The notes under the pieces were generated by a model. It was not told where the DNA came from. It saw nothing but the letters and a program-made list of their open reading frames with translations, and did not search any database. A program made the translations under genes and the position numbers. Below are positions 1 to 275 of a stretch of DNA of 276 bases, piece by piece; the stretch's first letter is position 1, and each line of letters starts with the position of its first letter. This DNA is from Escherichia coli (GTDB lineage Bacteria > Pseudomonadota > Gammaproteobacteria > Enterobacterales > Enterobacteriaceae), in assembly GCF_003334405.1 (NCBI RefSeq), contig NZ_QOWM01000072.1; one strand, written 5' to 3'.

Positions 1-28
1 GGGAACCTGCGGTTGGATCACCTCCTTA
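1..28 (+). rRNA. rrs: 16S (small subunit) ribosomal RNA, 3'-terminal 28 nt; the gene is truncated at the 5' side by the window edge
   Basis: Seen in sequence: GGGAACCTGCGGTTGGATCACCTCCTTA at 1-28 is the universally conserved bacterial 16S 3' terminus (helix 45 3' strand plus single-stranded tail), with the anti-Shine-Dalgarno core CCTCC at 21-25 and the mature end ...CCTCCTTA-3' at 28. Established knowledge: the E. coli 16S rRNA ends with this sequence. The specific operon (rrsA-H) cannot be assigned from 28 nt. Confidence 0.93.
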
Positions 29-199
29 CCTTAAAGAAGCGTACTTTGCAGTGCTCACACAGATTGTCTGATGAAAAGTGAATAGCAAGGCGTTTACGCG
101 TTGGGAGTGAGGCTGAAGAGAATAAGGCCGTTCGCTTTCTATTAATGAAAGCTCACCCTACACGAAAATATCACGCAACGCGTGATAAGCAATTTTCGT
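29..199 (+). other. 16S-23S internal transcribed spacer (ITS1), 5' portion, of the tRNA-Glu spacer type; transcribed and removed during processing, non-coding
   Basis: Seen in sequence: it lies between the 16S 3' end (28) and the tRNA 5' end (200), and has no long ORF. Established knowledge: enterobacterial rrn operons carry either tRNA-Glu or tRNA-Ile plus tRNA-Ala in this spacer. The spacer text (CCTTAAAGAAGCGTACTTTG...GCTGAAGAGAATAAGGCCGTTCGCTTTCTATTAATGAAAGCTCACCCTACACGAAAATATCACGCAACGCGTGATAAGCAATTTTCGT) matches my recollection of the E. coli tRNA-Glu type spacer; this was not verified by alignment. Confidence 0.85.
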
Positions 200-275
200 G
201 TCCCCTTCGTCTAGAGGCCCAGGACACCGCCCTTTCACGGCGGTAACAGGGGTTCGAATCCCCTAGGGGACGCCA
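200..275 (+). tRNA. tRNA-Glu, anticodon UUC (decodes GAA/GAG), 76 nt with encoded 3' CCA; spacer tRNA of an rrn operon (one of the gltT/gltU/gltV/gltW paralogs in E. coli, paralog not assignable from this window)
   Basis: Seen in sequence, a full cloverleaf folded by hand: acceptor stem 200-206 (GTCCCCT) pairs perfectly with 265-271 (AGGGGAC); discriminator G272; CCA at 273-275; D stem 209-212/222-225 with a 9-nt D loop at 213-221; anticodon stem 227-231 (CCGCC) pairs with 239-243 (GGCGG); 7-nt anticodon loop CTTTCAC at 232-238 with anticodon TTC at 234-236, preceded by T233 and followed by A237; 4-nt variable loop at 244-247; T stem 248-252 (AGGGG) pairs with 260-264 (CCCCT); T loop TTCGAAT at 253-259 (the canonical T-Psi-C-R-A motif). 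Established knowledge: the sequence matches E. coli tRNA-Glu as I recall it. Confidence 0.96.

Follow-up and report, generated by a model that had tools for sequence, protein, structure and literature searches.

The question raised by this locus is whether the putative glutamate tRNA gene at the 3' end of a 276-nt stretch of Escherichia coli DNA (the whole of which is called the window here) is an intact and ordinary gene, and which of the tRNA-Glu copies of an E. coli chromosome it represents. Positions 200-275 of the window encode tRNA-Glu(UUC), the only glutamate tRNA species of E. coli, and represent the gltW copy, located between the 16S and 23S genes of the rrnG operon, a reading to which a probability of about 98% is assigned. 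The data examined contained no evidence against this identity. The gene comprises 76 nt including the CCA and lies on the plus strand, as do the other features described below unless stated otherwise. One gene, tRNA-Glu (ttc), was predicted by ARAGORN at exactly 200-275, and the Rfam tRNA covariance model (RF00005) matched 200-272 over its full length (1-71/71) with 60.1 bits against a gathering score of 29 (E = 7.1e-13), so that the match is far beyond chance. The call of the Glu isotype was based on the anticodon, on a check of the identity elements and on the identity to annotated genes. Standard tRNA numbering was assigned by script, with G1 at window position 200.

The secondary structure of the gene is that of a complete cloverleaf. 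The acceptor stem (200-206/265-271) consists of seven pairs, the D stem (209-212/222-225) of four, G10-C25, U11-A24, C12-G23 and, as the last, U13-G22, and the anticodon stem (227-231/239-243) of five. The D arm (209-225) forms an 'augmented' D stem around a 9-nt loop, AGAGGCCCA. The anticodon loop (232-238) reads CTTTCAC, corresponding to C32 U33 U34 U35 C36 A37 C38, and is separated from the T arm (248-264, stem and loop) by the 3' strand of its stem and a variable region of 4 nt, UAAC (244-247), which has no nucleotide 47 and in which A46 is window position 246. Each of the 21 cloverleaf pairs, distributed over stems of 7/4/5/5 pairs, is of the Watson-Crick or G-U type. None of the universal residues is missing, these being U8, A14, G18, G19, U33, G53, T54, Psi55 (encoded as U), C56, A58 and C61. 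Folded in isolation, the RNA of the 76-mer has the cloverleaf as its minimum free energy structure (-32.8 kcal/mol, z = -2.5). Matches to three further Rfam models, mascRNA-menRNA, Tymo_tRNA-like and Plastid-psbl-rps4, were rejected, as they remained below their gathering scores and represent tRNA-like models reading the tRNA shape.

Every coordinate and base which an earlier note, made from the sequence alone, had given for a tRNA-Glu at 200-275 was found to be correct by ARAGORN, by the Rfam match and by renumbering. This includes the anticodon TTC (U34 U35 C36) at 234-236 within the loop CTTTCAC, recovered by direct reading, by ARAGORN and by renumbering, as well as the discriminator G73 at position 272 and the templated, genome-encoded 3' CCA at 273-275, both read directly from the sequence and placed identically by renumbering. 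The description of the anticodon loop as 'U-rich' is accurate insofar as three of its seven residues are U, but these are only the universal U33 and two anticodon bases, and the wording is loose.

Glutamate identity was assessed against the determinants listed for E. coli glutamyl-tRNA synthetase (GluRS) in PMC9976931. In that set, U34 with its mnm5s2 modification, U35, C36 and A37 are strong determinants, G1-C72 and U2-A71 are weak ones, the major determinants beyond the anticodon loop sit in the 'augmented D helix', and the discriminator base is dispensable for recognition in E. coli. The four anticodon-loop determinants are present in the window (T, T, C and A at 234-237), as are the two acceptor pairs, G1-C72 (G200/C271) and U2-A71 (T201/A270). 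The augmented D helix is present as well, with U11-A24 (T210/A224), U13-G22 (T212/G222), A46 at position 246 and nucleotide 47 absent. Every GluRS identity determinant of the PMC9976931 set is thus found in the gltW sequence. The earlier note had called mnm5s2U34 a major identity element for GluRS, which agrees with its rank as a strong determinant in PMC9976931, and had left the augmented D helix unmentioned.

The assignment of the tRNA to gltW, rather than to another tRNA-Glu gene, was made because of its flanks. Positions 1-28 are the 3'-terminal 28 nt of the 16S rRNA gene rrsG, as seen both from the Rfam SSU_rRNA_bacteria model (model positions 1506-1533) and from the RefSeq annotation, and contain the anti-Shine-Dalgarno motif CCTCC at 21-25. 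The presence of this 16S end places the tRNA in an rrn operon. The next 171 nt, positions 29-199, are the 5' portion of a 16S-23S internal transcribed spacer of the long type, delimited by the annotation gap between rrsG and gltW and by alignment to rrnB, rrnC and rrnE; the last base of the window, C276, is outside the tRNA gene. With its 16S end at 1-28 and its tRNA at 200-275, the window has the layout of an enterobacterial type-A operon, in which one tRNA-Glu gene lies between the 16S and 23S genes. In genomes which match the window, the 23S gene starts 184 nt past the tRNA.

The K-12 tRNA-Glu loci gltW (b2590, rrnG), gltT (rrnB), gltU (rrnC) and gltV (rrnE) were aligned with the window. 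The tRNA itself was identical to all four genes over 76/76 nt (100% identity to the NC_000913.3 annotation), so that a count of mismatches to E. coli tRNA-Glu gives zero, and a search for stem-disrupting substitutions relative to the reference tRNA-Glu yielded none, with 21/21 pairs standard. The flanks discriminate between the copies. The window is contained without change in the rrnG extract, the entire 276-nt rrsG-gltW segment showing no difference from K-12, whereas four spacer positions differ in the rrnB flank and the rrnC and rrnE flanks both lack a spacer block of 86 nt, their tRNA being preceded by a spacer of 85 nt, against 171 nt in rrnG. The gene order in NC_000913.3 is clpB-rrsG-gltW-rrlG-rrfG, and at the matching locus of MG1655 it was recorded as clpB, 16S, tRNA-Glu, 23S, 5S and kgtP. 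The window is accordingly the textbook E. coli rrnG locus, comprising the end of rrsG, the spacer and gltW.

The 16S 3' end also contains a GGAACC loop, whose two A residues are at window positions 4-5, equivalent to 16S positions 1518/1519 when calculated as an offset from the 1542-nt gene. These we take to be the sites of dimethylation by KsgA/RsmA.

Conservation within the species was determined by megablast against 5426 complete E. coli genomes. The whole window was found at 100% identity over 276 nt in many chromosomes, K-12 MG1655 among them, and the annotation beneath the match in E. coli chromosomes is '16S ribosomal RNA | tRNA-Glu'. The 76-mer was found in 5394 of the 5426 genomes with a median of four copies, and its best copy was at least 99% identical in 5397/5398 records. 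The 32 genomes without a megablast match to the 76-mer, even though the full window has a match in every one of the 5426, possibly reflect assembly quality or a quirk of the search. In E. coli HS1496 (NZ_CP142382.1) the tRNA-Glu has 97.4% identity and is annotated as 74 nt, having lost one base from the CCC of the D loop and one from the CCCC of the T stem. It was rejected as a real variant of the tRNA, since the two deletions are in homopolymers and are probably errors of long-read assembly; the neighbouring 16S gene in the same record is also short, being annotated at 1523 nt against 1542.

Since the tRNA body is not confined to E. coli, an origin of the window from another enterobacterial species, or from a phage or plasmid carrying a copy of the tRNA, was weighed against the chromosomal rrnG origin. 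The exact 73-nt body (without CCA) was searched in a scan with one genome per prokaryotic species, a sample rather than a census from which E. coli itself was absent, and 68 exact loci were obtained in the genomes of other species. Many genera of the Enterobacterales have the identical body (Enterobacter, Citrobacter, Kluyvera, Leclercia, Cedecea, Morganella, Dickeya, Brenneria, Tatumella, Rosenbergiella, Pantoea, Mixta and others), and among the other Gammaproteobacteria it was found in Alcanivorax/Alcanivoracaceae, in Rheinheimera and in one Thiotrichales MAG. A CCA directly follows the 73-nt body in 68/68 loci. Wherever a 16S end was within 400 nt upstream, mostly in Enterobacterales, it was about 81-87 nt from the tRNA, and in Tatumella and Cedecea colo 169-174 nt; in the non-enterobacterial Gammaproteobacteria no 16S end was present within 400 nt upstream of the tRNA. 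The exact body was also recovered from two Chryseobacterium contigs (455 and 249 nt) and one Oxalobacter MAG contig. These were rejected as an extension of the distribution, as they have flanks of the Enterobacteriaceae type and look like contamination or mis-binning, and one of the Chryseobacterium contigs shares its project with a Citrobacter assembly.

Exact copies of the tRNA-Glu were likewise present in database records labelled as mobile elements. Several phage-labelled records of 1.6-7 kb, one of them labelled 'Staphylococcus phage', contain it; these are mostly unannotated and at least some are rrn-like in layout. It is also contained in many 'plasmid' records, either of 5-10 kb or of megabase size, almost all of them non-mobilizable. 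Such short 'phage' records and these 'plasmid' records look like mislabelled host rrn or chromosomal DNA, which speaks against rather than for a mobile origin of the window. The remaining evidence points in the same direction, as the bases just upstream of the tRNA differ in other genera, most of which have a spacer of about 85 nt, while all 276 nt of the window, the fast-evolving spacer included, are 100% identical to E. coli chromosomes. An origin outside the E. coli chromosomal rrn operons was considered very improbable for these reasons, and the rrnG copy of E. coli is retained.

The earlier note had also regarded the tRNA as typical of the gammaproteobacterial type on account of its encoded CCA and its anticodon loop. 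For comparison, tRNA-Glu(UUC) genes were taken from a phage collection, in which the records for Listeria, Enterococcus and Staphylococcus are marked UNVERIFIED_ORG and the taxon label, being only the host that the record names, is weak. The tRNA-Glu of these Firmicute-phage-labelled records has an anticodon arm, ACACCGCCCUUUCACGGCGGU, identical to that of E. coli including the loop CUUUCAC, an identical variable region UAAC and a T arm differing at one or two positions. It differs from the E. coli tRNA in having A73 instead of G73, no encoded CCA, an acceptor stem beginning GGCCCGU.. or GGCUCCU.. and another D loop. A cyanophage tRNA-Glu in the same comparison is without an encoded CCA as well. 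Because the same anticodon arm is found in the Firmicute-phage-labelled records, the loop does not mark the gammaproteobacterial type, and of the two features only the encoded CCA stands. Judged from this comparison of sequences, the lineage-typical features are G73 together with the encoded CCA, as well as the acceptor stem and D loop.

A near-identical gene was found in Aeromonas phage AP1, whose tRNA-Glu(UUC) (AP1_0476; MT713136.1 252328-252403) shares 75/76 nt with the E. coli gene, has the same anticodon and encodes the CCA. The one substitution is in the D loop (CCC to CCU), and the gene is located in a 254-kb Straboviridae phage genome, not in an rrn operon.

With the identity of the gene as gltW established, its expression can be outlined from what is reported for the tRNA-Glu species. 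The gltW tRNA would be transcribed within the rrn precursor, starting from promoters upstream of the 16S gene; a promoter scan of the 276-nt window found no sigma-70-like site. The later steps are those of established rRNA and tRNA processing, involving RNase III, RNase P, a downstream endonuclease and trimming by exonucleases. RNase III would part the rRNA precursors from one another, RNase P would be expected to cleave at the 199/200 junction, leaving G200 as the 5' end of the tRNA, and an endonuclease would cut downstream, after which exonucleases would trim the 3' end to the encoded CCA. As trimming would stop at the encoded CCA, synthesis should need no CCA addition. The spacer 29-199 would be removed in the course of maturation.

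In PMC5179076 the four tRNA-Glu genes are described as identical and as situated in 'type-A' rrn operons, mature tRNA-Glu was detected, and the spacer tRNA-Glu genes are transcribed together with the rRNA from upstream promoters. An extra promoter within the 16S gene is reported there to sustain the synthesis of spacer tRNAs in stationary phase, and this internal promoter may add to gltW transcription under that condition. In the mature tRNA, U34 would be converted to mnm5s2U, and GluRS would charge it on recognising the anticodon loop, the acceptor pairs G1-C72 and U2-A71, and the augmented D helix; both the mnm5s2U34 modification and glutamylation are reported for the identical tRNA species (PMC9976931) and probably apply to the gltW product. 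The Glu-tRNA-Glu formed would decode GAA and GAG and would also supply glutamyl-tRNA reductase (HemA) for the synthesis of 5-aminolevulinate. The latter role, the C5 route invoked in the earlier note, agrees with PMC6399207, according to which HemA makes 5-aminolevulinate from glutamate bound to tRNA. How the gltW copy is expressed, processed, modified and charged would follow what the literature describes for the tRNA-Glu species.

The importance of tRNA-Glu is apparent from its median of four copies per genome, from the location of all four K-12 copies in rrn operons and from its additional contribution to haem synthesis. gltW is an already known, functional housekeeping gene, its sequence identical to the annotated K-12 gltW, gltT, gltU and gltV, and the view that the gene is intact and that nothing about it is unusual is shared here for a known locus. 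There is nothing new in the tRNA itself, and the locus has no use beyond that of a sanity check.

The spacer upstream of tRNA-Glu occurs in E. coli in two forms, a long one of 171 nt (rrnB, rrnG) and a short one of 85 nt (rrnC, rrnE). Comparison of window 94-199 with rrnC and rrnE identified the 86-nt block missing from the short form, and a copy covering at least 80% of the window, that is, the long form, was present in only 2791 of the 5426 complete E. coli genomes. The 3' end of the 86-nt block is a hairpin, located at 161-200 directly 5' of the tRNA (CACGAAAAUAUCACGC-AAC-GCGUGAUAAGCAAUUUUCGUG, predicted at -15.4 kcal/mol), of which the closing pair C161-G200 uses the tRNA base G1. Since tRNA-Glu genes of the same sequence, evidently functional, follow the long as well as the short spacer, production of tRNA-Glu does not require the hairpin.

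Folding of the precursor segment 150-276 gave a predicted minimum free energy structure of -47.9 kcal/mol in which CCCUA (156-160) pairs with the 3' acceptor strand and no acceptor stem is formed, compared with -45.8 kcal/mol when the cloverleaf was enforced. That gltW is a decaying or non-functional copy, a pseudogene or a mere tRNA-like processing signal with tRNA-Glu supplied by other operons, has next to no probability: four redundant copies per genome would in principle make one dispensable and the precursor fold prefers the alternative pairing to the acceptor stem, but the idea is unsupported since the copy matches its three paralogues exactly, with no substitutions, no stem mismatches and intact identity elements, the same long spacer precedes gltT in rrnB, and a gap of 2 kcal/mol in a prediction that ignores tertiary structure is no evidence of misfolding. 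For the functional gltW gene, it is conceivable though improbable that, specifically in the long-spacer operons rrnB and rrnG, the predicted 161-200 hairpin modulates how the tRNA-Glu precursor folds or how readily RNase P gains access to it. Such a role would amount to an operon-specific control of tRNA-Glu maturation.

A single terminator-like match in the window was rejected, since it is on the minus strand and corresponds to the apical portion of the spacer hairpin. A hairpin of the same architecture is found in the long spacers of Cedecea colo and Tatumella morbirosei. Relative to E. coli, Cedecea has two compensatory double changes, one in the basal stem (G-C to A-U) and one in the apical stem (G-C to C-G). 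A 'spacer loop' of rrnB is named in the title of Harvey et al. 1988 (reference 50 of PMC4696680), and the 86-nt block including the hairpin is probably this spacer loop.
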